A program made the translations under genes and the position numbers. Below are positions 1,836 to 16,998 of a stretch of 64,000 nucleotides of DNA, piece by piece. The notes beneath the pieces are model-generated. The model was not told the DNA's origin. It searched no databases and saw nothing but the letters and a program-made list of their open reading frames with translations. Source of the stretch: a bacterium (GTDB lineage Bacteria; Hydrothermota; UBA3072; JAPDKE01); contig JAPDKE010000034.1 in the NCBI GenBank assembly GCA_029258725.1, positions 15,107 through 79,106 on the forward strand, written 5' to 3'. Every line of letters begins with the position of its first letter. The stretch's first letter is position 1.

Positions 1836-3908
1836 TCACTCTATTTCCACCCTTACAATCTCCTCAGGAATGCCTATGGATAAAGAGGGGGAGGAGAAGT
1901 TCTTAACGTGCCTTATGAGAGTCTTTCCGCTCCTGAGATGAACCTTTATAACCTCTCCGGGCAACATTCCTTCCACCCTGAGCCACCGTGCCTTACTTTC
2001 GTTCTTAAAAACCCTCACACCCTCTGAACTCCCCACAACCAGGTCAGGGTCTCCATCCCTGTCCAGGTCCCCACATGCAACACCCCATGAGTTATAAACC
2101 CTCACCCCGGCAGGATATGTGACATCGTAAAACTTTCCATTTCTGTTCTCATAAAGAAAAGACCTTCTTTTTGGATAAATGGACGTTATGTAAAGGTCCA
2201 GGTCTCCATCCCCGTCAAAATCCCAGAGCAGCGGAAAGGAGTGGGTTTCCTCATACTTTATCCCCAGTTCTTTTCTTCTATCCATGAATCTCCCATCTTC
2301 ATTTATATAAACCATCGTCATATTTGAAAACTCAATATACCTTGGATGTGCAAGATTTGCGGTTATCAGGTCAAAGTCCCCATCCCCATCCACATCCCCA
2401 AAATCACTTCCTATTGTATGCCCCCACCATCCATCAACCTCCTTTCCTGCCACCCCCATTTCCTCTGCCTTTTCTATAAGTTTTCCGTGTTCATTCACAA
2501 AAAAGAAATTTTCCTGGAGCCTGTAGTTGGACACATAAACATCAACATCTCCATCCATGTCGTAATCACACACCGTAACAGACCTTCCTGCACGCTCAGG
2601 GATATCAAGCGGAATTTCAACCCATCCACTGTCCGTGTTTAAAAACAGCCTGTCCCTGAAGTAAACGTGCCTGTTCCAGTTTTCATAGTTTGCAAGATAA
2701 ATCTCAAGGTCTCCATCCCCATCCAGGTCAAAGGCACCGCATCCCTCGGTGGGGAAGGTATCAGGGGGGAAGGGAACCTCCTGGAATCTCCCTCCCTCAT
2801 TTATAAAAAGCCTTTCCTTTTTCCCAAAAACAAAAAGGTCCTGGTCCCCATCCCCATCAACATCCAAGCACATTCCCTTTCCCTTAACCTCTGAAAAGCC
2901 AAGTTCTTCGGTCACATCAATAAATTCTTTACCCTTTACATTCTTAAAAATCCGTATTCCAGAAACCACCAGGTCATCAAATCCATCCCCGTCCATATCT
3001 CCAAGTGCAACCACCCCTCCTTTCACTCCTGAAAGTCCCATTTTTTCTGTAACATCCATAAACCTCATCCCGGTATAGTTCAATATTCGCCTTGCCTCCT
3101 CTATAGGGTTAGGAGAAAGCAATCTCATAAGGGAATCTGCCTTAAAGGTCCAGGTTCCTCTCATATCACCCTCAACCAGGGCAAGGGATAGATACCTTTT
3201 TGCACTCGCGGTGTCTCCCTTTTCAAGAAAAATCCTTGCCTTCGCAAAGTAAAGTCCTGCGTGGGTTCCGTAGTGATCGGGACCAAATTCTATTTTTAAT
3301 GCCTCTTCAATCACTGAATCCGCCTTGCCATACTCCTTTCTTTCAATGAGGAAAAGAGAAAGATAAAGCCTTTTATTTACTTCGAGTGATAGTGAATCCA
3401 TCCACCACTGGATGGAAGGATAGTTTTGTGGTCTTTTACCAGTGGAAAGAGAGCATGCAATCATGCTTTCTTTGTATCCTTCCTCAAATCTTCTGTGCTT
3501 GTAGAGATAAACCGAAAGAATGTAATGGGGGAGAGGGGAGTTTTTCTTTTCGCTTATCCATCTTCTTCCATACTCAAAGAGACCAGCAGTGTCCCCGGTC
3601 TCATCAAATGCATGCATGAGATAAAGATATGCCTTATCCCTCCAGAGTGTCCTTGGATACCTTGAAAGAAATCTCTCAAGCACCGGAATCCATGCCTTTT
3701 TATCCTTCCATACCGGATAGAGGGAATCGTAAAACTCCTCACCTATGAGCTCGTACCCCTCTGGAGAGGTGGGGTACTTTTCCTTTATCACCGGGGCAAG
3801 TTTTTTCATGGTTAAAGTATCCCCCTTCTCCTCCGCTTCCCGGTATAAATCAGGAGGAGACCTCAAAAAGGGAACACATGCAAGGAAAAGATAAAAAATC
3901 CACCTCAT
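1836..3908 (-). CDS. CRTAC1/ASPIC-UnbV family protein: signal peptide, TPR-like N-region and FG-GAP repeats
   Basis: 690-aa ORF. The hydrophobic N-terminus (MRWIFYLFLACVPFL) is followed by repeated D.DGDGD.D.(LV) calcium-binding FG-GAP motifs (DMDGDGFDDL, DVDGDGDQDL, DLDGDGDLEI, DVDGDGDFDL, DFDGDGDLDL, DLDRDGDPDL) on the 20..3 end of the CDS. Confidence 0.75.
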   Translation of the reverse strand: MRWIFYLFLACVPFLRSPPDLYREAEEKGDTLTMKKLAPVIKEKYPTSPEGYELIGEEFYDSLYPVWKDKKAWIPVLERFLSRYPRTLWRDKAYLYLMHAFDETGDTAGLFEYGRRWISEKKNSPLPHYILSVYLYKHRRFEEGYKESMIACSLSTGKRPQNYPSIQWWMDSLSLEVNKRLYLSLFLIERKEYGKADSVIEEALKIEFGPDHYGTHAGLYFAKARIFLEKGDTASAKRYLSLALVEGDMRGTWTFKADSLMRLLSPNPIEEARRILNYTGMRFMDVTEKMGLSGVKGGVVALGDMDGDGFDDLVVSGIRIFKNVKGKEFIDVTEELGFSEVKGKGMCLDVDGDGDQDLFVFGKKERLFINEGGRFQEVPFPPDTFPTEGCGAFDLDGDGDLEIYLANYENWNRHVYFRDRLFLNTDSGWVEIPLDIPERAGRSVTVCDYDMDGDVDVYVSNYRLQENFFFVNEHGKLIEKAEEMGVAGKEVDGWWGHTIGSDFGDVDGDGDFDLITANLAHPRYIEFSNMTMVYINEDGRFMDRRKELGIKYEETHSFPLLWDFDGDGDLDLYITSIYPKRRSFLYENRNGKFYDVTYPAGVRVYNSWGVACGDLDRDGDPDLVVGSSEGVRVFKNESKARWLRVEGMLPGEVIKVHLRSGKTLIRHVKNFSSPSLSIGIPEEIVRVEIE

Positions 3909-4816
3909 TGGCCAAGCATGTTTTCGATCCTTTCAAGTTCCTGATGGACCCTTGACCGGGGAACTTCCGGTGTTTTTATCTCAAATGTCTGAAATCTCAG
4001 GAAAAGAGAGGCAGCAAATATAATCCCTGCAAGAATATTCATTATTACTTCCACGGGAATCCTTATCTTCTTCCTCTTTTTCTCCTTTTTCTTCTCCTCC
4101 TTTTTCTTTTTCCCCTTTTTCCTTACAGCACCCATTTCAAGCAGGTTATAAATCGCCTGATAGGTCCTGAACTTTCCGAGTCCGCTTGTTTCAACCAGTT
4201 CCTCAAGACTCTTTTCTCCATCTATCATTGAAAGTATCTTTTCCTCCTCAGGACCCATCTCAACCGAGACAGCCGGTTTTTCGGTCTTTTCAAACACCTC
4301 TTTCGGGTCATTCAGGGTTGCCTGTATTCTGGGCCATTCATCAATTCTCCTCATTCCCTCAAGCAGGAGAGCATTCGGGTCAACCGAAACCTTAAACCTG
4401 CTCTTTACGTAAAGTGCCTTTCCGGGTTCAAACCTGTACTTCCCCTCCTTCCACAAAAGAACTTCATCCACTATCTCCTGAATTTTGAAGTAAATAACCT
4501 CTTCAAGTTCCTGGTGCGTGAGTATTCCTTCCCTGAGCAAAATCTCATCAATTGGAATCTTTGTTTCTTCCGCCTTTTTCTTTATCTCATTGAACTTTTC
4601 TTTTGTTATTTTTCCCGATTTTACAAGATACTCTTCAAGAGGAAGCTCCACCCCTCCCTTGCCTGCAACTGCCGCAGTTATCCTTCCTTCCTCAAAGGAA
4701 AGGGAAATCGTATCACCCTTTGAGTAAAAGGTTAAAACCCCTGTTGACTGGTTCAGGGCAACAAACTGGATGACCTCTGCTGCACCAAATGCCTTCAGGT
4801 TTCCTTCAAAAGCCAT
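3905..4816 (-). CDS. DUF4388 (PATAN-like) domain protein with a Lys-rich linker and a C-terminal TM segment
   Basis: 303-aa ORF. The N-terminal GNLKAFGAAEVIQFVALNQSTGVLTF motif is characteristic of DUF4388. It carries a KKGKKKKEEKKKEKKRKK low-complexity stretch and a terminal hydrophobic helix. It overlaps its neighbours by 4 and 22 nt. Confidence 0.5.
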   Translation of the reverse strand: MAFEGNLKAFGAAEVIQFVALNQSTGVLTFYSKGDTISLSFEEGRITAAVAGKGGVELPLEEYLVKSGKITKEKFNEIKKKAEETKIPIDEILLREGILTHQELEEVIYFKIQEIVDEVLLWKEGKYRFEPGKALYVKSRFKVSVDPNALLLEGMRRIDEWPRIQATLNDPKEVFEKTEKPAVSVEMGPEEEKILSMIDGEKSLEELVETSGLGKFRTYQAIYNLLEMGAVRKKGKKKKEEKKKEKKRKKIRIPVEVIMNILAGIIFAASLFLRFQTFEIKTPEVPRSRVHQELERIENMLGQ

Positions 4817-6756
4817 TTTTTACCCTCCCATATGGTTACATGGACAAGATAGATATAGAAAAGTCCTGTAATGATGTAGAGAACGAGGTTTCCAACATAA
4901 GGAGGAACAGGTCTTGCAAACGGTTCAGGAAGGAAGAGATATTTTGAAAGAAAGGCGGAAAGAAGCAGGGAAAAGACGAAGACATAAACCACAGCCCTTC
5001 CCTTTTTCTCAAGGATGTAAAATCCGGTCCCTGGAAGCAGAAGATTCAACAGGAGTGCCTTCCATATAAAAAGCTCCCTTCTCTTCATCCTTATCTTTCT
5101 CTTTAATCTTTCCCTTATCCCCTTTGACTTGGTTGCGATGAGTTTTGTATAGCATCTTGTACACACTTCAAGGTCATCTATCCCTCTTTTCTTTTTGAAA
5201 ACAGGAGAGAGGCAGAGAGAGCACCTCTTTTCTTCAAAACTTTTAAAGAAGAAAGAAAGAGCAAAGATAAGGATGGGGAAGAGGAAAAAGACAAAAAGGG
5301 AAAGGTTGAAAATGGTGGATGGAATGTAAAAGGATGAGAAAAGCCTCCTCAAAACTTCCCCTTTCCCTGGTCCCATATCAACCGGCAGAGGATTTTCCTT
5401 TATCTGAATCTCGGTAAGAGAATAGTCTATTCCTGTTGCTATCTTCATCTCTTTCCGTGCATTTTCAAACATGAGTTTCTTGAGGTAAACAAGTCCAAGG
5501 TTAAAATGAGGTTCAGCCCTGTGGGGAGCAAGTTCTGCTGCCTTTGAATAGTAATAGAATGCACTATCATACTCCTGCCATATGTAGAATATGCTCCCGG
5601 TATTGTTGTAAAAGTGCGCTGCATGGGAGGAGTTGTAGCCCCTTCTGTAAATCTTGAGTGCCTCCTCAAATCTTTTTTCCTTTTTGAGTGAATTACCGTA
5701 TGCAAGGAGATAAACAGGGTCCTTTTCGTATCTTTTATCAATCACAAGTGGAGAGTATGGTTCAAGTTCAAGAGTTATTATGGAATGAACCCTTCCCCCC
5801 TCACTTCCCTCTATCTCAAAAGTTTTATCCACGGAAAGCAGAAAAGGAAGAAGGAATACAAAGGAAAGCGGGAGAATGAGATACCCTCTTTCAGAGCGGG
5901 GAGAGAAGAAGAAAACCAGGAATATAAGGACAAATAGGGAAAGAAGGGGATGGAGCCACACCACAAGAGAAAGCAAAAGAAAAGAGACCATGAAGCGTGT
6001 TAAAGGAGTTTTTTCCTCAAGAAAAACAGAGAGGTTTGGAAGGTTTCTTGAAAGAAAGTAAAGTATGAAGGAGAGGGAAAGAAGGGAGAGGAAGAGAATG
6101 AGTATGCGGTAAGAAAAATGAAAAAGATAGGGGAGGTTGGGGAAGAGGAAAAGGGAAAAGAAGTATCTCATAAGCCAGTTGAATCCCTCCCTTTTATCCC
6201 TGAAGAATGTAACCTTTGCAAGCTTGAGAATAAGGGACCTGCGGTAAGGGTCCAGTTCGTGTGAGAAAAGGTAGTCTCTTATTCCCTCTTCCTCCATTCC
6301 GAGTTTAATCAAACTGTCTCCCTCGTTCTCGTAAAAGAGAGAAAGCAGACAGAACTTCTCATTACCCTTTTTTCTCAATATCTCAATAATTTTCTTTCTC
6401 GTTCTTTCCTTCCAGGTATCAAGTCCGGAGGAGTTGAAGATTCTTTCGAGCAGGAAAAGGCTCCCAAAGTCCCTGGAATACTCTATCGCCTTTCGGTAAT
6501 ATTCTGAGGCAATCTCAGGCTTTTTCATGTACCGGTATGCCTCCCCAATTGCAAGATAGATATAAGGATTGAAGGTGGGAAGATGCCGGGTGTAGGTCTT
6601 TACCACATCCTCCAGGTCAATTGCAGGGAGGTATCCCTTTCCATCCAGGACTTCACCAAAGGATGGATAGATACGCTTTGTGTCCTCCCACTGAGCAAGA
6701 GCCCGGTCAAGCTGAACCAGAAAACCACTGAAGATAAAAACAATCATTCCAGCCAC
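4795..6756 (-). CDS. Polytopic membrane protein with TPR repeats and an internal C4 zinc-ribbon
   Basis: 653-aa ORF. It has several long hydrophobic segments, TPR-like YY..A/Y.KA motifs, and CSLC...CTRC (Cx2C-x17-Cx2C). Confidence 0.5.
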   Translation of the reverse strand: MAGMIVFIFSGFLVQLDRALAQWEDTKRIYPSFGEVLDGKGYLPAIDLEDVVKTYTRHLPTFNPYIYLAIGEAYRYMKKPEIASEYYRKAIEYSRDFGSLFLLERIFNSSGLDTWKERTRKKIIEILRKKGNEKFCLLSLFYENEGDSLIKLGMEEEGIRDYLFSHELDPYRRSLILKLAKVTFFRDKREGFNWLMRYFFSLFLFPNLPYLFHFSYRILILFLSLLSLSFILYFLSRNLPNLSVFLEEKTPLTRFMVSFLLLSLVVWLHPLLSLFVLIFLVFFFSPRSERGYLILPLSFVFLLPFLLSVDKTFEIEGSEGGRVHSIITLELEPYSPLVIDKRYEKDPVYLLAYGNSLKKEKRFEEALKIYRRGYNSSHAAHFYNNTGSIFYIWQEYDSAFYYYSKAAELAPHRAEPHFNLGLVYLKKLMFENARKEMKIATGIDYSLTEIQIKENPLPVDMGPGKGEVLRRLFSSFYIPSTIFNLSLFVFFLFPILIFALSFFFKSFEEKRCSLCLSPVFKKKRGIDDLEVCTRCYTKLIATKSKGIRERLKRKIRMKRRELFIWKALLLNLLLPGTGFYILEKKGRAVVYVFVFSLLLSAFLSKYLFLPEPFARPVPPYVGNLVLYIITGLFYIYLVHVTIWEGKKWLLKET

Positions 6757-7412: not shown

Positions 7413-7858
7413 GAGGAAAAATCATCGTGGTTGCAACAAACAGAAAGGCTTACCGGGATTATCACATAATAAAGACCTTTGAGGCAGGGATTGTGTTGCT
7501 GGGAAACGAGGTGAAATCCCTGAGACAGCGCAAGGTGGGGATGAAGGATGCCTATGCAAAGGTGGTGAATGGGGAGGTGTGGTTATACAACCTTCACATA
7601 TCCCCATATGAGAAGGAATGCATTCACACAGACCCTGAAAGACCAAGGAAACTTCTGCTTCACAAGTCCGAGATAAAGAGGCTTTACGGTATGGTAAGTG
7701 AAAAAGGGTACACCCTTATCCCCCTGAAAATATACTTCAACGAAAGGGGAGTGGCAAAGGTTGAACTTGCGGTGGCAAAGGGTAAAAAGCAGTACGAAAA
7801 GAAAGAGGAACTCAAGAGAAGGATTATGGAAAGAGAGATGAAGGAGGAGGGATGGTAA
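7406..7858 (+). CDS. smpB: SsrA-binding protein SmpB
   Basis: Conserved SmpB core (VATNRKAYRDYHII..FEAGIVLLGNEVKSLR...KLLLHKSEI). The track ORF begins at 7199 but overlaps the convergent gene. The likely start is GTG at 7406, giving an N-terminus of M/V-SRGKIIVVATN. An alternative start is ATG at 7337. Confidence 0.8.
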   Translation: MSRGKIIVVATNRKAYRDYHIIKTFEAGIVLLGNEVKSLRQRKVGMKDAYAKVVNGEVWLYNLHISPYEKECIHTDPERPRKLLLHKSEIKRLYGMVSEKGYTLIPLKIYFNERGVAKVELAVAKGKKQYEKKEELKRRIMEREMKEEGW

Positions 7859-9195
7859 CGCTTCTTTTATCCCTTGTCATAATCTATCAGGGGGAAAGAT
7901 ACGAAATTCCTGAGGTTTCCGGATATGTGAATGTTGCGGACCTTCAGGAGGTGATAGGATTTTCGACCCGGTGGGATAGAGAAAAGAAGTTCCTTTACAT
8001 AAAGAAGAATATGGAGTTAAAACTCATGCCCGACAATACATTTTTTGAGGCAGGGAAAGAAGTTTATCAATTATCAAAACCCATGAAACTCATAGAAGGA
8101 AAACTCATGCTTCACCGTGAAACCCTTCCGGAATTGCTTTCCCTTCTTACAGGGGAGGAGTTTTTTGAGAAAGGGGGGACCATTTATGCAGGAAGAAATG
8201 TTAATGTGCTTGGGGTGGATATTGAGGAGAAGAAGGGTGTAACAAAGGTGAAAATAAAAATCAAGGGGAACCTCAGGTTTTACTATGAGGGGAAGGATAC
8301 CCTGTGGAAACTTACAATTTTTGATGCTGTCCCCACTCCCGGGATGGTTCTTATACCAAAAGGATTTGTTAAAAAGGTAAAAATGGAAGAAAAGGAGAAC
8401 TACATTCTTTTCACATTTGTAATAAAGGACGGGAATAAGGATGTGGACGTAAGGAAGGATAAGGATGCGATAATTTTTGAGGTAAAAGAGAGAGAAAAAA
8501 GGGAAATAAAAACCATTGTGATAGATGCAGGACATGGAGGGAAGGACCCCGGGGCAATAGGTCCTTCTGGATTGAAGGAAAAATACGTTACACTTGATGT
8601 TGCAAAAAAACTTGCCGCAATTTTGAAAAGAAAAGGATTTAACATCATAATGACACGAACGGATGATACCTTTATTCCTCTCAAAGAAAGAACAAGGATA
8701 GCGGATGAGGCAAGGGCTGACCTTTTTATAAGCATTCACTGCAATGCAGTTCCAAAAAGAAAAAAGAAAGAAGTAAAGAAAGGGGTTGAGGTTTACTTTC
8801 TTTCTGCAGCAAAGACCGACTGGGAGCGTGCAGTTGAGGCAAGGGAGAACTCTTCCATAGAGTTTGAAAAAACAAATTCCGTCCCTGTCCCTGAACTTGA
8901 ATACATACTCTGGGACCTTGCACAGAACATATTTCTTGAGGAATCAAGTGAGCTTGCAATTGCAATACAGGAAGAACTCTGCAAGACCACAGGACTTTAC
9001 AACAGGGGAGTGAAACAGGCAAACTTCTATGTTTTAAGGCTCAACTACATGCCTGCGGTTCTTGTGGAAATAGGATTTATATCAAATCCGCACGAGGAAA
9101 AGTTGCTCAAATCTTCCTCTTTTAGAGAAAAAATTGCAGAAGGAATAGCAAGGGGAATTGAAAGATTCGTAAGGGAGTATGAGAAAAAGTACTGA
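7852..9195 (+). CDS. amiC: N-acetylmuramoyl-L-alanine amidase (Amidase_3, AmiA/B/C family) with an N-terminal AMIN-like domain
   Basis: Catalytic core IVIDAGHGGKDPGAIG ... FISIHCNA ... matches the Amidase_3 zinc-binding motifs. Confidence 0.85.
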   Translation: MVTLLLSLVIIYQGERYEIPEVSGYVNVADLQEVIGFSTRWDREKKFLYIKKNMELKLMPDNTFFEAGKEVYQLSKPMKLIEGKLMLHRETLPELLSLLTGEEFFEKGGTIYAGRNVNVLGVDIEEKKGVTKVKIKIKGNLRFYYEGKDTLWKLTIFDAVPTPGMVLIPKGFVKKVKMEEKENYILFTFVIKDGNKDVDVRKDKDAIIFEVKEREKREIKTIVIDAGHGGKDPGAIGPSGLKEKYVTLDVAKKLAAILKRKGFNIIMTRTDDTFIPLKERTRIADEARADLFISIHCNAVPKRKKKEVKKGVEVYFLSAAKTDWERAVEARENSSIEFEKTNSVPVPELEYILWDLAQNIFLEESSELAIAIQEELCKTTGLYNRGVKQANFYVLRLNYMPAVLVEIGFISNPHEEKLLKSSSFREKIAEGIARGIERFVREYEKKY

Positions 9196-9976
9196 TCCTA
9201 TTGGAGTATTTGACTCAGGAATAGGTGGATTAACCGTTGTAAGGGAGATAATGCGGGAACTGCCGGATGAGAGCATTATTTACTTTGGTGATACCGCACG
9301 GGTTCCGTATGGAACAAAGTCAAAGGAAACGATAGAGAAATTTGCGGTGGAGGATGTTGAGTTTTTACTGAAATTCAATGTAAAAATCATCGTGAGTGCA
9401 TGTTTCACGGTTTCTTCCAATGCAATGGATGTTCTGAGGGGGAAGTTCAACATCCCCATTTTCGACATGATAGAGCCAGGTGTGAGGGCTGTGAAGAGGA
9501 CGGGAAAGAGAAGGATAGGAATTATAGGCACATACGCAACGATTGAGAGCAGGGCTTATGAAAAAAGGATAAGGGAGGAAGTGCCGGATGCGGAGATATT
9601 CACCCGGCCTGCCCCTTTATTCGTTCCACTCGCAGAGGAGGGGAAAACACGGGGGAAGATTGCAGAGCTTGTTGTAGAGGAGTATTTAAAAGAACTGAAA
9701 GGGAGGGTGGAAGTTCTCGTTCTTGGATGCACCCATTATCCACTGCTTAAGGAAACGATAAAGGATTTTATGGAGGAGGTTATTCTCGTGGAACCGGGGA
9801 AGGAGGTTGCGGGAATGCTCAAAGAATACCTGGGAAAAGAAGGATTGTTATCCTCAGGACCTCCCCGGTATTCCTTTTATCTTTCTGATATTCCGCGGAA
9901 ATTCGGAGAGATAGGGGAGAGATTCCTTGGAAGAAAACTTGAGGGAATAAGGGTTGTGAGGGAGTGGATTACCTGA
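9179..9976 (+). CDS. murI: Glutamate racemase
   Basis: IGVFDSGIGGLTVVREI N-terminal motif, the two catalytic-Cys regions (SACFTVSSNA, LGCTHYP), 265 aa. Confidence 0.9.
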   Translation: MRKSTDPIGVFDSGIGGLTVVREIMRELPDESIIYFGDTARVPYGTKSKETIEKFAVEDVEFLLKFNVKIIVSACFTVSSNAMDVLRGKFNIPIFDMIEPGVRAVKRTGKRRIGIIGTYATIESRAYEKRIREEVPDAEIFTRPAPLFVPLAEEGKTRGKIAELVVEEYLKELKGRVEVLVLGCTHYPLLKETIKDFMEEVILVEPGKEVAGMLKEYLGKEGLLSSGPPRYSFYLSDIPRKFGEIGERFLGRKLEGIRVVREWIT

Positions 9977-11765
9977 AAATTTTCCTTTTCACAGGTCTCT
10001 TTTTTGGAATTATTCCTATATCCATCTCCTTTTTCCTATCCCCCGGTCTCAGGTAGATGTAAAGCAAAAGGTCGGGAGGATTCAGGGTATAGCCGGGTGG
10101 AAGATTCCTCACCCCCAGGATGTAGAATCCAGGGAGCAAATTTCCCAGAATGTAATCCCCTTTTGAATCGGTTATCGTGAAGTAATGGGTATCTTTTATG
10201 TAAATCACGGTATTTGGAACCCCCTCCTCTCCATAGTCCCATCTTCCATTTTCATTTCTGTCATAAAAGACCTTTCCTGATATGTATGCGAGGGTGGTTA
10301 TTGGGAAATCAATCCTCACTTTATCAAACCACCCCACCCTGAACTTCTTTTCCTCAAACCGTGCACCATAAGATGCGGGTAAATTCCCCAGGTCTATGTA
10401 AACTCTGTGGAATCCAGGTGCAAGTCTTTCAAATCTGTATCTCCCTGAATAGTCTGTCTTGACAGTATCCTTATCATCCAGAACCATTCTCACTCCCCTT
10501 ACCACAGGTTCTCCCTTATCGTATTTTTTATTGTTATTCTCATCATAGAATACAATCCCCTCCACTCTTCCAAATCCCCTCTTTTCTATCTCTCCCCCCT
10601 GCCCAAGGTAGAAAGAAAGAGAGGTTGATGATGGACAGCGTGATATGTCCATGTTGATGGAAAAACTTTTCCAGTAAAAGGAAAGTCCAAAGTCTGCGGA
10701 AGAGAATTCACGATTAAAAAAGTTGAGGTTAAAGGAGGTGGAGAGAGAGGGAACGGGCTTCACCCTGAGATAGAAAGCAAATCTTGAGGAATTTATATCG
10801 TTTCTTTTTACTTCACTCCTTATCCCGGTGGAGTAGTAGGGAGAGGGGGAAAGGAATAGACCAATGGATACCCTTTTTTCAGGATTTGCACCCCATACTG
10901 CATCTCCATGAAGTTCTCCTTTCACAAATTTATATTTTTTGAATAAAGACCCTCCCATTCCAAAGAATCCTCCATCCTGGAATCCCTCCCTGAATCTCAA
11001 GGAAAAGAAATTATACGAAAATGTATGGAAGAATTTTATATATCCGGTTTTCTTTATTCCAGCGGATATTGCGTGGAACATATTTATAAAAGGAAAACGG
11101 TAACCAAGACCTCCGGTGAGGGAAAGATTGAAAGAGGGGGTTCGTGAAAGATAGGACGAAATATAATGAGAGGAATAAACCCTCAGGGTTCCAAAAAGGT
11201 AAAATGGGTCGGTTTTTGAGTACTTCATAAATAATCCAGAAAATGGACGCATGGCAGACGTATCCCTCCATATACCCCCCGTAAAAACACCTCTGAAATG
11301 TCCTGTCTTTATTCTCAGGTTGAGTCTGGATATAAACAGACCATTATTTTCCTGCCTTATCACTCCCTCTGTTTTTATGAACTTCATTACGGAGTCCACA
11401 CCAAAGAAGAGGAAAAACTTATTGTCCTGGAAAGTAGGTGAGAAAGAAGACAGGAGGTCCTGGAGTTTACCTCCGCCTCCATAACATTTTTTATATTTTA
11501 CACCAATTCCCAGCATTCTTGGATAACCTCCAGATGGAAGTTCAATCTCCGGGCGGAATATACCTGCCTCAAATCCCCTGTACCTGAAATAAACGGTTCT
11601 CATTCCCTTTTCCAAGGGAGTCCTTCCACCCTCTATGAGGAAGTTCCACCCGGGTTGATAAAGGGAGAGGAGTATGGAACCCCGGTATTCTTTTTCTTCC
11701 ATAAACGTTGTTAATTGATGGGATGTCTCCCACCGGTACGAGATAAAAGAAAGAATAAGAATCAT
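9969..11765 (-). CDS. Putative outer-membrane beta-barrel protein with two C-terminal CarboxypepD_reg/CNA-B-like beta-sandwich domains (usher-like?)
   Basis: 598-aa ORF. About 380 aa is rich in alternating aromatic/Gly beta-strand pattern. It is followed by two about 90-aa repeats (GRYRFERLAPGFHRVYID ; GDYILGNLLPGFYILGV) of the transthyretin/SdrD-B-like fold. ATGA coupling to the upstream PapD-like gene. Confidence 0.45.
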   Translation of the reverse strand: MILILSFISYRWETSHQLTTFMEEKEYRGSILLSLYQPGWNFLIEGGRTPLEKGMRTVYFRYRGFEAGIFRPEIELPSGGYPRMLGIGVKYKKCYGGGGKLQDLLSSFSPTFQDNKFFLFFGVDSVMKFIKTEGVIRQENNGLFISRLNLRIKTGHFRGVFTGGIWRDTSAMRPFSGLFMKYSKTDPFYLFGTLRVYSSHYISSYLSRTPSFNLSLTGGLGYRFPFINMFHAISAGIKKTGYIKFFHTFSYNFFSLRFREGFQDGGFFGMGGSLFKKYKFVKGELHGDAVWGANPEKRVSIGLFLSPSPYYSTGIRSEVKRNDINSSRFAFYLRVKPVPSLSTSFNLNFFNREFSSADFGLSFYWKSFSINMDISRCPSSTSLSFYLGQGGEIEKRGFGRVEGIVFYDENNNKKYDKGEPVVRGVRMVLDDKDTVKTDYSGRYRFERLAPGFHRVYIDLGNLPASYGARFEEKKFRVGWFDKVRIDFPITTLAYISGKVFYDRNENGRWDYGEEGVPNTVIYIKDTHYFTITDSKGDYILGNLLPGFYILGVRNLPPGYTLNPPDLLLYIYLRPGDRKKEMDIGIIPKKRPVKRKIFR

Positions 11766-12472
11766 CTCACCAGTATCTCTCTTTCCCCCTCAAGGATTTC
11801 AAGACCACCGTAGTCTATCCGCGCAATAACCCTGAATCTTCCCTTCTTTTTGAAGGGAAAGGCAAACACCCGCCTGGAATGCCTCAGGACCGTTTCCCCC
11901 TCCACCTTTTTCTCATAAACCTTCTCCGCACCATCCCATACGGTTATAGTTACAGATGGTTTCAGCCTGCAGTTTCCATCATTTGAAAATTCAACAAAAA
12001 TTGTATCTCCTTCATATGTTATATTCTTTATATCCCCGTTTTTCACAACCGTATTCGCAGCCTTGATGTAAAGTGCACAAACGACCTCACCTTCCAGAAC
12101 CACGGTTGGTTTCCACACCTTTGGAAGCCTCACGGACCGGAAGACAAGAACACCTGAATATTCTCCACGGGCATTCTGAGGCAAATTTACCGTAAATCTC
12201 ACGGTTTTTTTCTCCCCGGGGAGAATTGTGAATGAAAGGGGGTTTACCTCAACATATTCGTGACAGGAAAATGGATACACTCCCGGGTCAAGCCATTTAA
12301 CCTTGCCCCTTGCATCTATTACAAAATCCTCTTTTTTAACCTCGATGAACAGTGTTTCCCTGCTTACATTGGTAATTCTTATTGATTTTGTGACTGCTCT
12401 TCCTGGAAATACAACTAAATCAAAAGAAGGAGGGGAAAGGAGAAATCCAAACCCTGAGAGAACAAATAGCAA
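11762..12472 (-). CDS. Secreted two-domain Ig-like protein, PapD/MSP-like periplasmic chaperone fold (putative)
   Basis: 236-aa ORF with signal peptide. Domain 1 is VVFPGRAVTKSIRITNVSRETLFIEV...FTILPGEKKTVRFTV, the classic PapD-like/CARDB-like strand pattern. A second beta-sandwich follows. Its size matches pilus chaperones. Confidence 0.4.
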   Translation of the reverse strand: MLFVLSGFGFLLSPPSFDLVVFPGRAVTKSIRITNVSRETLFIEVKKEDFVIDARGKVKWLDPGVYPFSCHEYVEVNPLSFTILPGEKKTVRFTVNLPQNARGEYSGVLVFRSVRLPKVWKPTVVLEGEVVCALYIKAANTVVKNGDIKNITYEGDTIFVEFSNDGNCRLKPSVTITVWDGAEKVYEKKVEGETVLRHSRRVFAFPFKKKGRFRVIARIDYGGLEILEGEREILVR

Positions 12473-12497
12473 GGATTCCTCCCTTCCCCTTTACCTT

Positions 12498-13040
12498 TTA
12501 CAGTGCGTAGACCCTGTATCTGACCCAGGTGGTGTATGTTCCTGCCGGGTCGTCAGCCTGTGCCTCAAATCTGTAATCCTCGTCGTGGGCTTCCCATCCC
12601 GTGGTTTTTGAACCACTTGCATGGTTTGTCCAGCCATTGCTGAAGTCCTCGTATGTTCCATCCCCCGCAGGACTCCACTCAAGCTGGGTTATTGGAATGT
12701 CTGCGTCAAAGTCATCACCGCATGCATCAAGATACCAGGTCTTTGTTGGAGAGTTGGAGAACACCTCTATGTCCACGGTTGGGCTGGTTGCAGGGTCTGT
12801 GGGGTCATAGTACGCGGGGAAGGAAGCAGGAGGATAACCAGCAGCATCAAGGTCAAATACCACAATATCGCCTGAGGCATCGGTTTCAAGATAGAGTCCT
12901 ATTCTTTCGGGGATGATAACCTGAACCTGAACGGAGTCAACCAGTGTGTCTGGAGGAGCACCTATCTGGCGACCAAGTCCAAAAAGGTTGAGGGGTAAAA
13001 CTACCAGAGCAAAAAGGAAAATGCACTTCCTCATACCCAC
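12498..13040 (-). CDS. Secreted acidic protein (candidate structural subunit), atypical composition
   Basis: 180-aa ORF with a clear signal peptide (MGMRKCIFLFALVVLPLNLFG). The mature part is Asp/Thr/Pro/Gly-rich with only 3 Lys, which is strikingly unlike the flanking K/E-rich proteins. The DNA is visibly GC-richer. Confidence 0.5.
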   Translation of the reverse strand: MGMRKCIFLFALVVLPLNLFGLGRQIGAPPDTLVDSVQVQVIIPERIGLYLETDASGDIVVFDLDAAGYPPASFPAYYDPTDPATSPTVDIEVFSNSPTKTWYLDACGDDFDADIPITQLEWSPAGDGTYEDFSNGWTNHASGSKTTGWEAHDEDYRFEAQADDPAGTYTTWVRYRVYAL

Positions 13041-13047
13041 CTCCTTT

Positions 13048-13476
13048 TTAATCGTTTGCCCTCAAGACAAAGATAAAGGGAACGGTAAACCTTCCCGCCC
13101 CTATCTCCCAGCCTACCCTTATCTTGAGGTCAAGGGTTATGAGTTTTTCCTCCGTGGGACCTCCCTTTGCTATGTCAAAGTTTTCATCCTTTCTCAGGGG
13201 GCGATACTCTCCATCAGGAAGTTTCCATTCCATTATATCCAGGGGAATGATTTTCCCGGTTTCATCCCTGAACTCTTCAGGGACCTTAAAGGAAAGAACC
13301 CAGTCGGTGTTTGCCTTTACCCTCAACCTTATCGCCCCCCTCTTTTCCACATCCTTTCCAGGGTCTATCTCACCGAAGTCCACAAACTTCGTAAGAACCT
13401 CCAGCGAGATGGTTGGCTCCACCTCAAACTCAACAACCGCCCTGTCCTCAACGGCAAAAAGCAGTAGCCACAGCAT
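13048..13476 (-). CDS. Small secreted beta-rich protein (candidate minor subunit), first gene of the operon
   Basis: 142-aa ORF. AGGA lies 5 nt before the ATG. It has a hydrophobic N-terminus and all-beta-like sequence (WVLSFKVPEEF...MEWKLPDGEY). Confidence 0.45.
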   Translation of the reverse strand: MLWLLLFAVEDRAVVEFEVEPTISLEVLTKFVDFGEIDPGKDVEKRGAIRLRVKANTDWVLSFKVPEEFRDETGKIIPLDIMEWKLPDGEYRPLRKDENFDIAKGGPTEEKLITLDLKIRVGWEIGAGRFTVPFIFVLRAND

Positions 13477-13537
13477 CTCATCCTAAATTTAATATCAAAA
13501 AGCAAATTTGTCAAGTTCTGGTTTAAGTTTTTGCTGG

Positions 13538-13566
13538 ATTGACAAAATAAAAGAGGGGGGTATAAT
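13538..13566 (+). promoter_or_regulatory. Sigma70-type promoter (TTGACA - 16/17 nt - TATAAT) for the trmH-like gene
   Basis: ttgacaaaataaaagaggggggTATAAT sits immediately upstream of the start at 13575 and is read directly from the sequence. Confidence 0.55.
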
Positions 13567-13574
13567 GCAGATGG

Positions 13575-14150
13575 ATGACAGAAAGAAGAAAAAGAAGGAT
13601 AGAGGAGGTTTTATCAAAAAGACAGCATGACCTTGTTCTTGTCCTGGAGGACCTCTACAAAGAGCATAATGTGAGTGCAATTATAAGGTCTGCGGATGCA
13701 TTTGGGGTCCTGAGGATTTATGTTGTCAAGGAGGGAGAATTCAGGTATGCCCCTTCAGTTTCACGGGGTTCTGAGGAGTGGGTTGATGTTATCGTAACAT
13801 CGTCTATAGAAGACGTTCTTGTGGAATTAAAGGGCAAGGGATTTCAGATAGTTGCAACATACCTTGGAGAGGGAACAGTGAGACCTGAGGAGGTTGATTT
13901 TACCCTTCCCACTGCAATAGTTCTGGGAAACGAACTTGAGGGGGTGAGTGAAAAGGTGATTGAAATCTCGGATGTGAGGGTAAAGATACCCACCATAGGT
14001 ATGGTTACGAGCCTCAATGTCTCTGTGGCATGTGGAATATTACTTTACGAGGCGATGAAACAGAGGGAAAGGAAGGGGTTCTTCAGGGAAAGAAGACTCC
14101 CTCCTGAACTGTACGAGTGGATGAGGAAAAGATGGATGGAGAATACCTGA
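13575..14150 (+). CDS. SpoU/TrmH-family RNA 2'-O-methyltransferase
   Basis: Motifs HNVSAIIRSADAFGV, IVLGNELEGVS and VTSLNVSVACGILLYE identify the SPOUT class. 191 aa. Confidence 0.8.
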   Translation: MTERRKRRIEEVLSKRQHDLVLVLEDLYKEHNVSAIIRSADAFGVLRIYVVKEGEFRYAPSVSRGSEEWVDVIVTSSIEDVLVELKGKGFQIVATYLGEGTVRPEEVDFTLPTAIVLGNELEGVSEKVIEISDVRVKIPTIGMVTSLNVSVACGILLYEAMKQRERKGFFRERRLPPELYEWMRKRWMENT

Positions 14151-16120
14151 GGTATCTTGAGGAGCATTTTGGTAAAAGAGAAAAGGTCCTTTTTGAATAT
14201 GCAAAACCATTTATTGAAAAATACCTTCTTATTCCCGAGGAGATAAAAAATCCACCTTACATCATTATTACTGAAAGAAAAGAGAGGGAAAGAATACTTG
14301 AAATGATCAGGGGAATGGAGGAGTATATCTCAGAGGGAAGAGAGGAGGCATGGGAGGAGAAGGGAGCCTCTTTTTTAACCTATCTCTCCGAACTTTATCC
14401 TGAATGGGAGAAAACCTATGGGAAACCCGTGCTGCTGGAGCTTGGATTGAGGAATCTTATTGCCCACAGGATATCCCCATCCTCTCTCTTACCCGAATTC
14501 TCAGAGCGTATAAATGCGGTGTTTCACTGGGCAAGAGAAAAAATGCCTCCCCATCCGCTCTTTTCCAGAGTGAGGAAATGTTTTCTTATTCCCGATGATG
14601 CCTTCAATCTTAAAAGAGAATCCATTGAATTTTTTGTTTCTCCCTATATTCCCCCTTCCCTTTTCTGGAAAATCCTGGAAGAGGTGAAGGTGGAAAGAAT
14701 GGAAAAGACAGAAGAGGAGGTGAAAAAGGAGGTCGAACCCTCTATTTCCCTTCTTTTGAAAGGTATAGAACCACTTCTCATGGATTTCCCTCATTCTGCA
14801 GGGGAGATAATAAAAAGGCTTGAAAGAGCGAAGGAAAGCCTTGTTCTGAAAGAGCAGGAGTTCAGGGAGAGGAAAAAGAAAAGGGAAATAGCAGTCTCAA
14901 TACCGGAGTTCCTGAGAAAACTCATCCACCTTCCTGAACTCGAACACGAGGTCGTTATGGATATTCTGAGAGAGAGTATGCCTGAAAAGTACACAAAAGG
15001 TAGATTGAGAAGGGAGGTGGATTTTGATGCATTTGAGCAGGATTACCGTGCCTTACTTGACAGACTTCTTCCTTCCATTGCACTCAAGGTTCTTGAAACA
15101 ATGGTGAGGGTGTGGATACCTGAAAAAATCATCCTGGATGAGGCAAGGTACTTTGGATTTAAGATGAGAAAAAAGGAAGTATTTTTTATACCACCAAAGG
15201 ACTATCATGAAATAAAGGAAGAAAAATGGGAAAGAATAGTTGCGGTCCTTGTCTATGATATAAGGGGGTCGTCATTCATGGGAGAAAAACTTGGATGTGC
15301 AAAAAAGGAGAGTGAGATAAGGAATCTATTTCAGGAAAGGATGGCGAAGGTTGGGAGGAAGTATGGAGCTTTTCTCCTGAAGGATACAGGGGATGGCGGA
15401 ATTTTCTTTTTCTCAGAAAACTCGGACTCCCTTTATCTTTCCTATCTCTCTGCAAGGGAGAAGGGGAGATACCCTGAACCTCAGGAACTCATACCAGGGG
15501 AGGATGCAGGATACAGGGCTGTTCTCTGCGCGCGCGACATGGTGGTGGAAGCGGAGAAGTTTGTAAAGGAACATCTTGAGAAGTATGCAGAGTGGTTCAC
15601 GGAGATTGAGGAGAAAAAGATTGAATTTGGAGGGATTGTTTATCAGCGTCTTCCTCCATCCTATAGAGAAATATTCAGAATAGGAGTGGGAATAGCAGGA
15701 GGATTGCCTCCAGATGATGTGTGGTTTGAGATAAATGCCTTTGGGGATGGGGACCTTACCGGAAGGCTTGTGAGGGATGCGACCCTCTTCTCAAAGGCAA
15801 AACACCCTGAAAGGTCGGTAATACTTGCAGATGAGCTTGTTGTGAGTAATTTTATACTGAGGGTTGAATCCTTTGAGTATGAAAAGGAGGAAAAAGAAGA
15901 GGGTATGGCCCCGGAAAATCCCGAGGTCCTTTTCCTTCACGAACTTTTCACCTGGTACCGGGGAGGAAAGAACTATAAGGTAAAACAGGCAAGGGTAAAA
16001 ATAGAAAGGGTAATGAAGGAAGGCATGGAGTATGAGGGAATGAGGATAGGGGAGAGGAAGGAGGGAGTGGACAGAAAGAGCGGGAAGGTGAAGAGTGTCT
16101 ATGAAATCCTGGTAACATAA
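14117..16120 (+). CDS. Large cytoplasmic protein with a class-III nucleotidyl cyclase (CHD)-like domain after a 370-aa helical N-region
   Basis: 667-aa ORF. The C-terminal half has VAVLVYDIRGSSFMGEKLG (like F.DI.GFT), LLKDTGDGGIFFF (like K.IGD..MAVF), RIGVGIAGG (like R[IV]GIH.G.V..G) and FGDGDLTGRLVRDAT (like GD.VN.A.R.E). It overlaps the trmH-like gene by 34 nt. Confidence 0.5.
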   Translation: MDEEKMDGEYLRYLEEHFGKREKVLFEYAKPFIEKYLLIPEEIKNPPYIIITERKERERILEMIRGMEEYISEGREEAWEEKGASFLTYLSELYPEWEKTYGKPVLLELGLRNLIAHRISPSSLLPEFSERINAVFHWAREKMPPHPLFSRVRKCFLIPDDAFNLKRESIEFFVSPYIPPSLFWKILEEVKVERMEKTEEEVKKEVEPSISLLLKGIEPLLMDFPHSAGEIIKRLERAKESLVLKEQEFRERKKKREIAVSIPEFLRKLIHLPELEHEVVMDILRESMPEKYTKGRLRREVDFDAFEQDYRALLDRLLPSIALKVLETMVRVWIPEKIILDEARYFGFKMRKKEVFFIPPKDYHEIKEEKWERIVAVLVYDIRGSSFMGEKLGCAKKESEIRNLFQERMAKVGRKYGAFLLKDTGDGGIFFFSENSDSLYLSYLSAREKGRYPEPQELIPGEDAGYRAVLCARDMVVEAEKFVKEHLEKYAEWFTEIEEKKIEFGGIVYQRLPPSYREIFRIGVGIAGGLPPDDVWFEINAFGDGDLTGRLVRDATLFSKAKHPERSVILADELVVSNFILRVESFEYEKEEKEEGMAPENPEVLFLHELFTWYRGGKNYKVKQARVKIERVMKEGMEYEGMRIGERKEGVDRKSGKVKSVYEILVT

Positions 16121-16125
16121 AGGAG

Positions 16126-16998
16126 GTGGATATGGGAGAGCATCCTGTGGTTGAGGAAAGTATATCTCTTTTTAAGGAGGCTGGAGAACGCGCCCCGGAA
16201 CTTGAGGGTGTTCCAACCGGGATAGAGGGGCTTGATGACCTTTTCTTCACCGCGGTTATGAAAAAGGGAAACCCCAAAAAGATATCCCTTGGAGGAATTC
16301 CAAGATACGCAATATTCAATCTCACAGGAATTGCGGATACCGGTAAAAGTCTTATGGTTGAGCAGTTTGCAATAACACGTGCGGGGGCAGGGGAAAAGGT
16401 TGTTTTTATAACGGTTGAATCACCGGCTCCCTTTGTTGCAGCAGGGATGAAGGAAAGGGCGAAGATAATGGGTGTACCGGAGGAAAACGTTGAGGAGAAT
16501 ATAATCTTCATAGATGCTGCATCCTATCATGTGGTAAGAGAGGATATTCTTTCATTACTTAATACCCTTGCACATGTGATAAAAACCTACAAAACCCAGC
16601 ACGTCGTTGTTGACTCAATAACAGGGCTTTATGAAAACAGGGAAATGATGGCAAGGCAGGTTGTGAGGCAGATATTCAACTTCCTGAAGAAGTGGCACCA
16701 GACAGGTCTGCTTGTATCCCAGAAGCGTTCAGGACACGAGGCATTCTCATCAGAGGCGGCAGGGGGTTATGCGGTTGCACACATAGTTGATGGGACTTTT
16801 GTTCTTTTCAAGGAGACGATAGATTCAAACTACAAGGAGAGAATGTACGGATTGCCCATAGGGGAGATGGTGAGGTTATTCAGGATAGATGGATGCAGAC
16901 TGTGCGGTCACGATGCAGAGACCCATTTGTTTGAAATAACAGAGGGAGGACTTGTCCGTATAGGTCCATCTCTTGCTGAATTGAAAAAGAAGAAATGA
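16126..16998 (+). CDS. KaiC/RadA-like single-domain RecA-superfamily ATPase
   Basis: PTGIEGLDDLF...G...YAIFNLTGIADTGKSLMVEQFA matches the KaiC-domain N-terminus including Walker A. A Walker B-like motif is HVVVDSITGL. There is a C-terminal CRLCGH motif. It begins 6 nt after the cyclase-like gene. Confidence 0.75.
   Translation: MDMGEHPVVEESISLFKEAGERAPELEGVPTGIEGLDDLFFTAVMKKGNPKKISLGGIPRYAIFNLTGIADTGKSLMVEQFAITRAGAGEKVVFITVESPAPFVAAGMKERAKIMGVPEENVEENIIFIDAASYHVVREDILSLLNTLAHVIKTYKTQHVVVDSITGLYENREMMARQVVRQIFNFLKKWHQTGLLVSQKRSGHEAFSSEAAGGYAVAHIVDGTFVLFKETIDSNYKERMYGLPIGEMVRLFRIDGCRLCGHDAETHLFEITEGGLVRIGPSLAELKKKK

Follow-up and report, generated by a model that had tools for sequence, protein, structure and literature searches.

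A cluster of four adjacent genes (s142, s178, c236 and b598) in an uncultured bacterium of the phylum Hydrothermota encodes a homologue of WxLIP together with two small secreted proteins and a larger protein that ends in two SdrD_B domains. The cluster lies on contig JAPDKE010000034.1 (assembly GCA_029258725.1), of which a stretch of 64,000 nucleotides was analyzed (positions 15,107 to 79,106, hereafter called the window; positions refer to this window unless a homologous locus is named). Judged from the protein sequences, the closest family of the operon is that of the WxLIP/WxL proteins of Bacilli. This family was not considered in a preliminary description of the same DNA, in which the genes were compared with a miniature chaperone-usher pilus locus. 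The reading that we favor, with chances that appear about even, is that the operon specifies a cell-envelope complex of the WxL/WxLIP type, remodeled to suit a host that has an outer membrane. Nearly all reported WxL proteins belong to Lactobacillales and Bacillales, in which they keep adhesins bound to the cell wall (PMC10599100, PMC9772566), and a combination of two small proteins and one WxLIP protein represents the commonest type of WxL cluster (PMC10599100, section 2.2). Three of the four operon proteins have no Pfam family. In public records they are listed as 'hypothetical protein', a name also given to b598 (RKZ26198.1).

The WxLIP-like protein

The third gene product, c236, is a homologue of WxLIP with a PapD-like two-domain fold that lacks the C-terminal membrane helix. 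It is basic (isoelectric point (pI) 9.4), has no transmembrane helix and is modeled by AlphaFold2 (AF2) as two all-beta domains with a predicted local distance difference test (pLDDT) value of 72. In a Foldseek search with this model, the structures 9i25_C and 9i1y rank on top (E 4e-11 to 5e-10), of which 9i25 is by its title a WxLIP protein bound to a long WxL protein. CsuC, CfaA, Caf1M, FimC and PapD occupy the next ranks (E 2e-8 to 6e-7); both groups align over approximately 236 columns. The sequence profiles point the same way. An alignment of 13 c236 homologues matches four proteins annotated as 'DUF916 and DUF3324' over 237 columns covering both domains (hhalign; 96.2%, E 2.3e-9), and nine of the 13 family members show a sub-threshold match to PF06030 (WxLIP_PGBD/DUF916; best E 1.9e-6), while none of them matches PapD_N or PapD_C in Pfam. 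Against five chaperones of Escherichia coli, the c236 family reaches 14% (P 0.002) over 190 collinear columns in which the C-terminal DYG motifs are aligned. WxLIP proteins and pilus chaperones compared directly reach only 0.3% (E 0.24, 13 columns). As c236 thus resembles WxLIP strongly and the pilus chaperones weakly, whereas the latter two do not resemble each other, the c236 family possibly forms a bridge between them. The chaperones, ushers and pilins used for comparison are real E. coli K-12 sequences (five chaperones and five ushers), and the WxLIP (n = 4) and WxL (n = 7) sequences stem from plasmids of Bacillus, Enterococcus and Companilactobacillus. A WxL-like query sequence gave no match in PDB; it retrieved annotated plasmid WxL genes, and these real sequences served for all comparisons with WxL. 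Sequence and profile searches of PDB with c236, the small proteins and the N-terminal domain of b598 gave nothing useful either.

In the register of the hhalign alignment, the position of the chaperone residue Arg8 is occupied by Lys or Arg in most c236 homologues and by Ser in the protein of the window (PPSF), and an equivalent of Lys112 is not conserved among the homologues. All 13 homologues terminate directly after the second domain (…DYGG.E[IL]L[EQ]GE…); the protein of locus L016 has a TPR-like tail instead. WxLIP runs on for about 60 residues beyond the region aligned to c236, helix included. The only internal stretch of the c236 model with a pLDDT below 50 is the inter-domain loop formed by residues 116-127 (LPKVWKPTVVLE), which, on the basis of the model, is the candidate for a complementing strand. 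The earlier view of this protein as PapD-like therefore stands for the two-domain fold, which both AF2 and Foldseek support, and is not supported for membership of the PapD family. The idea that it works like a chaperone survives nonetheless, since WxLIP also binds its partner by beta-strand completion.

The small secreted proteins

Both small proteins are acidic in their mature form, with a pI of 4.87 for s142 and 4.05 for s178. The beta-rich s142 starts with a short signal (MLWLLLFAVE), followed by an amphipathic N-terminal strand (AVVEFEVEP), and carries a W-x-L motif (DWVL) and a C-terminal …GAGRFTVPFIFVL strand. The s178 protein has a normal signal peptide, a W-x-L motif (TWYL) and the C-terminus DDPAGTYTTWVRYRVYAL. 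In the family alignment, subunits of the s178 type share an N-terminal amphipathic strand (DTL[IV]D-x-VxVxIxIP) that is absent from the second subunit type of loci L007 and L013. A C-terminal DDPAG.Y… strand characterizes the family, whose members end 2-3 residues past a conserved aromatic residue. The first W-x-L motif is found in eight of 12 subunits, with an invariant Leu. The 142-aa and 178-aa families merge in iterated hidden Markov model (HMM) searches and hence are paralogues; s142 is the minor-type and s178 the major-type subunit.

Single searches with the subunits return no Pfam, NCBIfam or PDB family. Compared as a family, the mature subunits align with seven WxL domains over 93 collinear columns (hhalign, P 0.0018) in such a way that the first W-x-L motifs coincide, as do the AG.Y strands at the C-terminus, whereas controls with reversed sequences and pilins give short alignments only (P 0.13-0.41). 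The two subunit types, which are related, score P 0.0029 against each other, so the signal towards WxL is equally strong as the one between the subunits themselves. A WxL-like ancestry of the subunits is suggested by this profile comparison, although it does not amount to proof. No similarity is found between the mature subunits and seven type 1 pilins when signal peptides are trimmed (P 0.41). An initial match at P 0.0022 with untrimmed sequences was rejected, as it represents aligned signal peptides.

The b598 protein

The fourth protein, b598, is basic (pI 9.75) and combines an orphan N-terminal domain with two C-terminal SdrD_B/CnaB-type domains and a basic tail. The C-terminal domains are prealbumin-like beta-sandwiches with a calcium loop, in agreement with the two beta-sandwich domains noted earlier. 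In the first of them, a calcium-type motif (D-x-N-x-N-x(3)-D) is conserved at D408 and N410, with N412 and D416 nearly invariant; D502, N504, G507, D510 and E513 are conserved in the second. Residues P591, K595 and F597 of the tail are invariant in ten sequences.

Aromatic residues, Ser and Gly are abundant in the N-terminal domain, which has large lineage-specific insertions and deletions. It comprises 12-19 strictly alternating hydrophobic segments, or 3.0-4.2 per 100 amino acids compared to 0.8-2.7 in controls. AF2 gives no usable fold (pLDDT about 25), no similarity is found in Pfam or PDB, and a comparison with five ushers yields nothing (hhalign, 0.1-0.2%). The alternative identities as a TonB-dependent receptor or OMP85 find no match in Pfam or NCBIfam at E ≤ 1, and the N-terminal profile has no match in PDB. 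The earlier label 'outer-membrane-barrel-like' reflects an impression from composition. Together, the absence of PapD_N/PapD_C matches, the low scores against chaperones and ushers and the missing similarity to pilins speak against the earlier assignment to the chaperone-usher family.

Host envelope and export signals

The window encodes LptF/G, from which it follows that the host possesses a lipopolysaccharide (LPS) outer membrane and is a diderm. The relatives are metagenome-assembled genomes (MAGs) of candidate division WOR-3. Three of the four operon proteins start with very short signal peptides that lack a basic n-region, whereas homologues elsewhere have normal ones. Such short signals are present in b598 (MILILSFISY, 11720-11765), c236 (MLFVLSGFG, 12440-12472) and s142 (13440-13476), as well as in a neighboring amidase (MVTLLLSLVIIYQG, 7852-7900). 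They may represent a trait of this lineage or result from the choice of start codons.

Conservation of the locus

A word-indexed search with the 236-aa protein yields four relatives. Locus L004 is a 97%-identical copy that carries the same four genes; the remaining relatives (39-42% identity) are located in WOR-3 MAGs, in a trio of genes for 198, 278 and 627 amino acids. More distant loci were added by searches with the 598-aa protein and by metagenome scanning, and all fetched loci were compared by local BLAST and iterated HMM searches. On all contigs of sufficient length, the subunit gene(s) are followed by a gene for a ~240-aa protein and then by one for a ~600-690-aa protein. This order is shared by some ten lineages with 26-43% identity, and the stop and start codons of adjacent cluster genes overlap in most loci. 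Because this order is kept in independent loci at such low identity, the open reading frames (ORFs) of the window are real genes, and the co-conserved module of secreted proteins that had been proposed is borne out. Two subunit genes accompany one WxLIP-like protein in six lineages (the window, L007, L008, L013, L017 and L019). An s178-type subunit is present in every locus with sufficient upstream DNA, and homologues of s142 in L008 and L017 hold the same first position. An exhaustive HMMER search among 1.84 billion protein representatives retrieves six clusters for the N-terminal domain of b598, all of them from the b598 family itself.

A sigma-54 promoter was sought upstream of all operons and found in L007 only, where a perfect copy (TGGCACGATTTTTGCA, 6030-6050 of that locus) lies 93 nt upstream of the first subunit gene. 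NtrC-type sigma-54 activator genes adjoin the cluster in L007 (11928-13301), L008 (5461-8110) and L019 (4017-5390); L008 additionally has a histidine kinase gene beside the cluster, and an ORF for a CheY-like receiver precedes the subunits in L008 and L017. In L019, a strong GC-rich hairpin (GATCATGCCCTTCCCCTCC…GGAGGGGAAGGGCATGATC, at ~75-125) separates the major subunit gene from the next subunit gene and resembles the attenuators found after major pilin genes. Envelope and polysaccharide genes (glycosyltransferases, heptosyltransferase, Poly_export) surround the operons of L001 and L007. A TPR-like module of ~55 residues (…G.Y..A..I[FW]..[IL]L…[RK]RT…LE.[LM]RK) occurs on the c236 homologue of L016 and on the ORF just upstream of it (17-268 and 315-1310 of that locus); the same module forms the C-terminus of the b598 homologues P0009 and P0013, after the RPV.KK.F motif. 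A gene neighboring the L016 cluster encodes a type IX secretion-like C-terminal domain. The WOR-3 MAG S014_22 holds two diverged copies of the cluster, L005 (WFRC01000004.1) and L006 (WFRC01000173.1), whose major subunits share 62% and 43% identity with that of the window.

Proposed mechanism and alternative explanations

In a WxL/WxLIP-type complex adapted to a diderm, Sec would export all four products. The basic c236 would serve as a soluble periplasmic WxLIP homologue that binds both acidic, distantly WxL-like beta-sandwich proteins and inserts its flexible inter-domain loop as their missing beta-strand, as WxLIP does with WxL: in WxLIP, a disordered hairpin turns into a strand and thereby complements the beta-sandwich of WxL (PMC10599100, section 2.4). 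Whereas a C-terminal helix anchors Gram-positive WxLIP in the cytoplasmic membrane, c236 has no such helix and is translationally coupled to b598 instead. The amphipathic-beta N-terminal domain of b598 would reside in the outer membrane and offer a platform in place of this helix, with the calcium-binding SdrD_B domains and the basic tail facing the periplasm and docking the adaptor-subunit complexes. The small proteins would thereby be handed to, and kept at, the cell surface. The complementary charge of the acidic subunits versus the basic c236 and b598 counts in favor of such a complex, and the TPR-like tail common to b598 homologues and a c236 homologue suggests a common compartment, the periplasm, for c236 and the C-terminus of b598.

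A number of observations are less easily reconciled with this picture. The second W-x-L motif of WxL domains is replaced by [YF]-x-[LVI] in the subunits, a Pfam scan of 12 subunits at E ≤ 10 gives no WxL (PF13731), SCPU or fimbrial match, and the link between the subunits and WxL is weak as a whole. The c236 pre-sequence in the window counts nine residues only. For b598, the outer-membrane beta-barrel is putative and is deduced only from the composition of the protein, the periodicity of its strands and its signal peptide; our home-made strand heuristics under-count known barrels (FimD, OmpA), and hence do not discriminate and are not used as proof of a barrel. Passage of the subunits across the outer membrane is a step that we infer, and the peptidoglycan binding described for WxL and WxLIP_PGBD fits a purely periplasmic role equally well.

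Such a periplasmic role defines a quite improbable alternative, in which b598 is the outer-membrane anchor of an envelope scaffold or of a tether that reaches to the peptidoglycan. In this case, c236 and the WxL-like proteins attach to peptidoglycan by non-covalent binding and nothing is exported. It gains from the homology between c236 and WxLIP, a protein with a first domain called peptidoglycan-binding, from the description of WxL domains as peptidoglycan binders (PMC10599100), from the basic nature of c236 and of the b598 tail, and from the envelope and polysaccharide genes around the L001 and L007 operons. However, the peptidoglycan binding of WxLIP is a docking prediction, and strongly acidic subunits would be odd peptidoglycan ligands. 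Moreover, the module is very rare and patchy (six representative clusters), exists in two copies in one WOR-3 MAG and is under sigma-54 or two-component control in some lineages, which argues for an accessory system rather than core envelope architecture. Still less credible, and in our view very unlikely, is that b598 acts on its own as a self-exporting adhesin of the inverse-autotransporter type, with an N-terminal barrel that displays the SdrD_B domains outside and three accessory or unrelated neighbors. A barrel-first, Ig-like-last architecture, SdrD_B domains as typical of surface adhesins and calcium motifs suited to an extracellular location would agree with this. Yet b598 is strictly syntenic and translationally coupled with c236 in all lineages, the N-terminal domain is far larger than a 12-strand barrel, and Pfam gives no intimin/invasin, LysM or autotransporter match for b598. 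The TPR-like tail, which follows the SdrD_B domains in some homologues and recurs on a c236 homologue, points to the periplasm instead.

A genuine minimal chaperone-usher pilus is unlikely as well. Here, c236 would be the chaperone and b598 an usher of ~24 strands without plug or N-terminal domain, its sandwiches corresponding to CTD1 and CTD2, and the subunits would polymerize into a surface fiber by donor-strand exchange, for which the conserved amphipathic strand at their N-terminus would serve. The genes follow the order subunit-subunit-chaperone-usher, c236 has the PapD-like fold and its collinear match to the E. coli chaperones includes the DYG motif, and the N-terminal domain of b598 has about the size of a plugless usher barrel. 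The VxVxIxIP strand of the major-type subunits is missing from the second subunit type of L007, L013 and L019, as in tip subunits, and the subunit C-termini lie at a fixed distance from the conserved aromatic residue. The sigma-54 promoter and activator genes and the hairpin after the major subunit gene of L019 fit in too. On the other side, b598 gives no sequence signal towards ushers, the match to PapC ranks below many generic prealbumin-fold matches, and the subunits are unlike pilins. The Lys112 equivalent is not conserved and Arg8 is replaced by Ser in c236 of the window, WxLIP itself lacks profile similarity to the chaperones, and polymerization is pure inference. A distinctly improbable variant regards the operon as a living intermediate between WxL/WxLIP complexes and chaperone-usher pili, in which a soluble WxLIP-type chaperone and a plugless minimal usher build a WxL-like fiber by donor-strand exchange. 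If true, both systems would have a common origin and b598 would be the smallest known usher.

Operon layout and genomic neighborhood

The four ORFs of the preliminary description are found at the same positions (Table 1), as are the 25-nt gap between the s178 stop and the c236 start and the 4-nt ATGA overlap of c236 and b598. For the second gene, inspection of the sequence places an ATG behind a GGAGG site, and this start (178 aa) is more likely than the GTG (180 aa). The spacing from s142 is 7 nt with the GTG and 13 nt with the ATG. Between the promoter and the first ATG, a ribosome-binding site (AGGATGAG) directly precedes the latter. A TTGACA element is also present upstream of the homologous WOR-3 operons, their promoters being sigma-70-like as in the window.

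Table 1. Positions of the genes, protein domains and promoter of the operon in the window.
Feature	Position	Strand	Remarks
s142 gene	13476..13048	minus	142 aa
s178 gene	13034..12498 (ATG) or 13040..12498 (GTG)	minus	178 aa from ATG; 180 aa from GTG
c236 gene	12472..11762	minus	236 aa; TTG start behind GGGAGG, in-frame stop just upstream
b598 gene	11765..9969	minus	598 aa
b598 N-terminal domain	10590..11765	minus	residues 1-392; orphan
b598 SdrD_B/CnaB-type domain 1	10296..10571	minus	residues ~399-490
b598 SdrD_B domain 2	10005..10286	minus	residues ~494-587
b598 basic C-terminal tail	9969..10004	minus	GII.K.RPVKRK[IV]F and stop; conserved
Operon promoter	13514..13486	minus	sigma-70-like, TTGACA-17-TAAATT; consensus match only

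The operon is flanked by housekeeping genes (spoU-like, murI, amidase and smpB) and looks self-contained. Its b598 end overlaps the 3' end of the convergent murI gene (glutamate racemase, 9179-9976) by 8 nt (9969-9976), and no terminator-like hairpin is detected between these two 3' ends. In the divergent intergenic region (13477-13574), the plus strand carries TTGACA-16-TATAAT (13539-13566), a 12/12 match to the sigma-70 consensus that stops 8 nt short of the ATG (13575) of the SpoU-type methyltransferase. With so short a distance, the methyltransferase mRNA would be nearly leaderless, or else the real start codon lies further downstream. Elsewhere in the window, a 667-aa ORF without Pfam match is followed after 5 nt by a single-domain KaiC/RecA-like ATPase gene (PF06745, 8e-54), the pair (14117-16998) being a possible two-gene module. 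Another run of genes on the minus strand with overlapping ends (1836-6756), for an FG-GAP-repeat protein (690 aa), a DUF4388 protein (303 aa) and a TPR protein (653 aa), may be a further envelope or surface operon.

Comparison with known systems

Among known systems, the WxL/WxLIP (Csc) clusters of Lactobacillales and Bacillales (PF13731, PF06030, DUF3324/WxLIP_HBD; PDB 9i1y and 9i25) come closest. The homology of c236 covers both WxLIP domains, its disordered loop lies where WxLIP donates a strand, two small secreted proteins typically accompany one basic WxLIP-like protein, and the W-x-L motif and AG.Y C-terminal strand of the subunits are in register with those of WxL domains. Here, however, an LPS-bearing diderm from the WOR-3 radiation is the host instead of a monoderm of the Bacillus class, and c236 is devoid of a C-terminal transmembrane helix. 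Neither an LPXTG protein, which WxL clusters often include, nor a 'large WxL' protein is encoded at the locus, which has gained a translationally coupled protein of 600-660 amino acids with an orphan domain and two SdrD_B domains. Moreover, no subunit reaches any Pfam threshold or has a second W-x-L motif.

Chaperone-usher pili (PF00345/PF02753 and PF00577), of which the archaic Csu type is nearest by Foldseek, have the same gene order and a PapD-like periplasmic protein. The likeness extends to the weak collinear profile match with its DYG motif and to the subunits, in which the N-terminal strand is amphipathic and the C-terminus fixed. By sequence, however, none of the four proteins is a family member, and the carboxylate-anchoring pair Arg8/Lys112 is not conserved. 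Unlike known ushers, b598 is ~250 residues shorter and has no recognizable usher N-terminal domain or plug, while its barrel fold is putative. It differs as well from the SdrD/Cna B-repeat MSCRAMM adhesins (PF17210), in that its domains are positioned C-terminal to a putative outer-membrane domain in a diderm, with neither an LPXTG anchor nor a ligand-binding A region. In the literature, we found no paper that links WxL to diderms or to chaperone-usher systems, or WOR-3 to chaperone-usher systems, and one general review only that connects WxL with donor-strand mechanisms. With a clear homologue of WxLIP in deep-branching thermophiles that are uncultured and bear LPS, the WxL/WxLIP system would reach into the diderms. 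Here, the WxLIP-type protein lacks the membrane helix and is always coupled to a new protein of outer-membrane type. The c236 family may help in asking whether the strand-completing chaperones of Gram-positive and Gram-negative bacteria share an ancestor.

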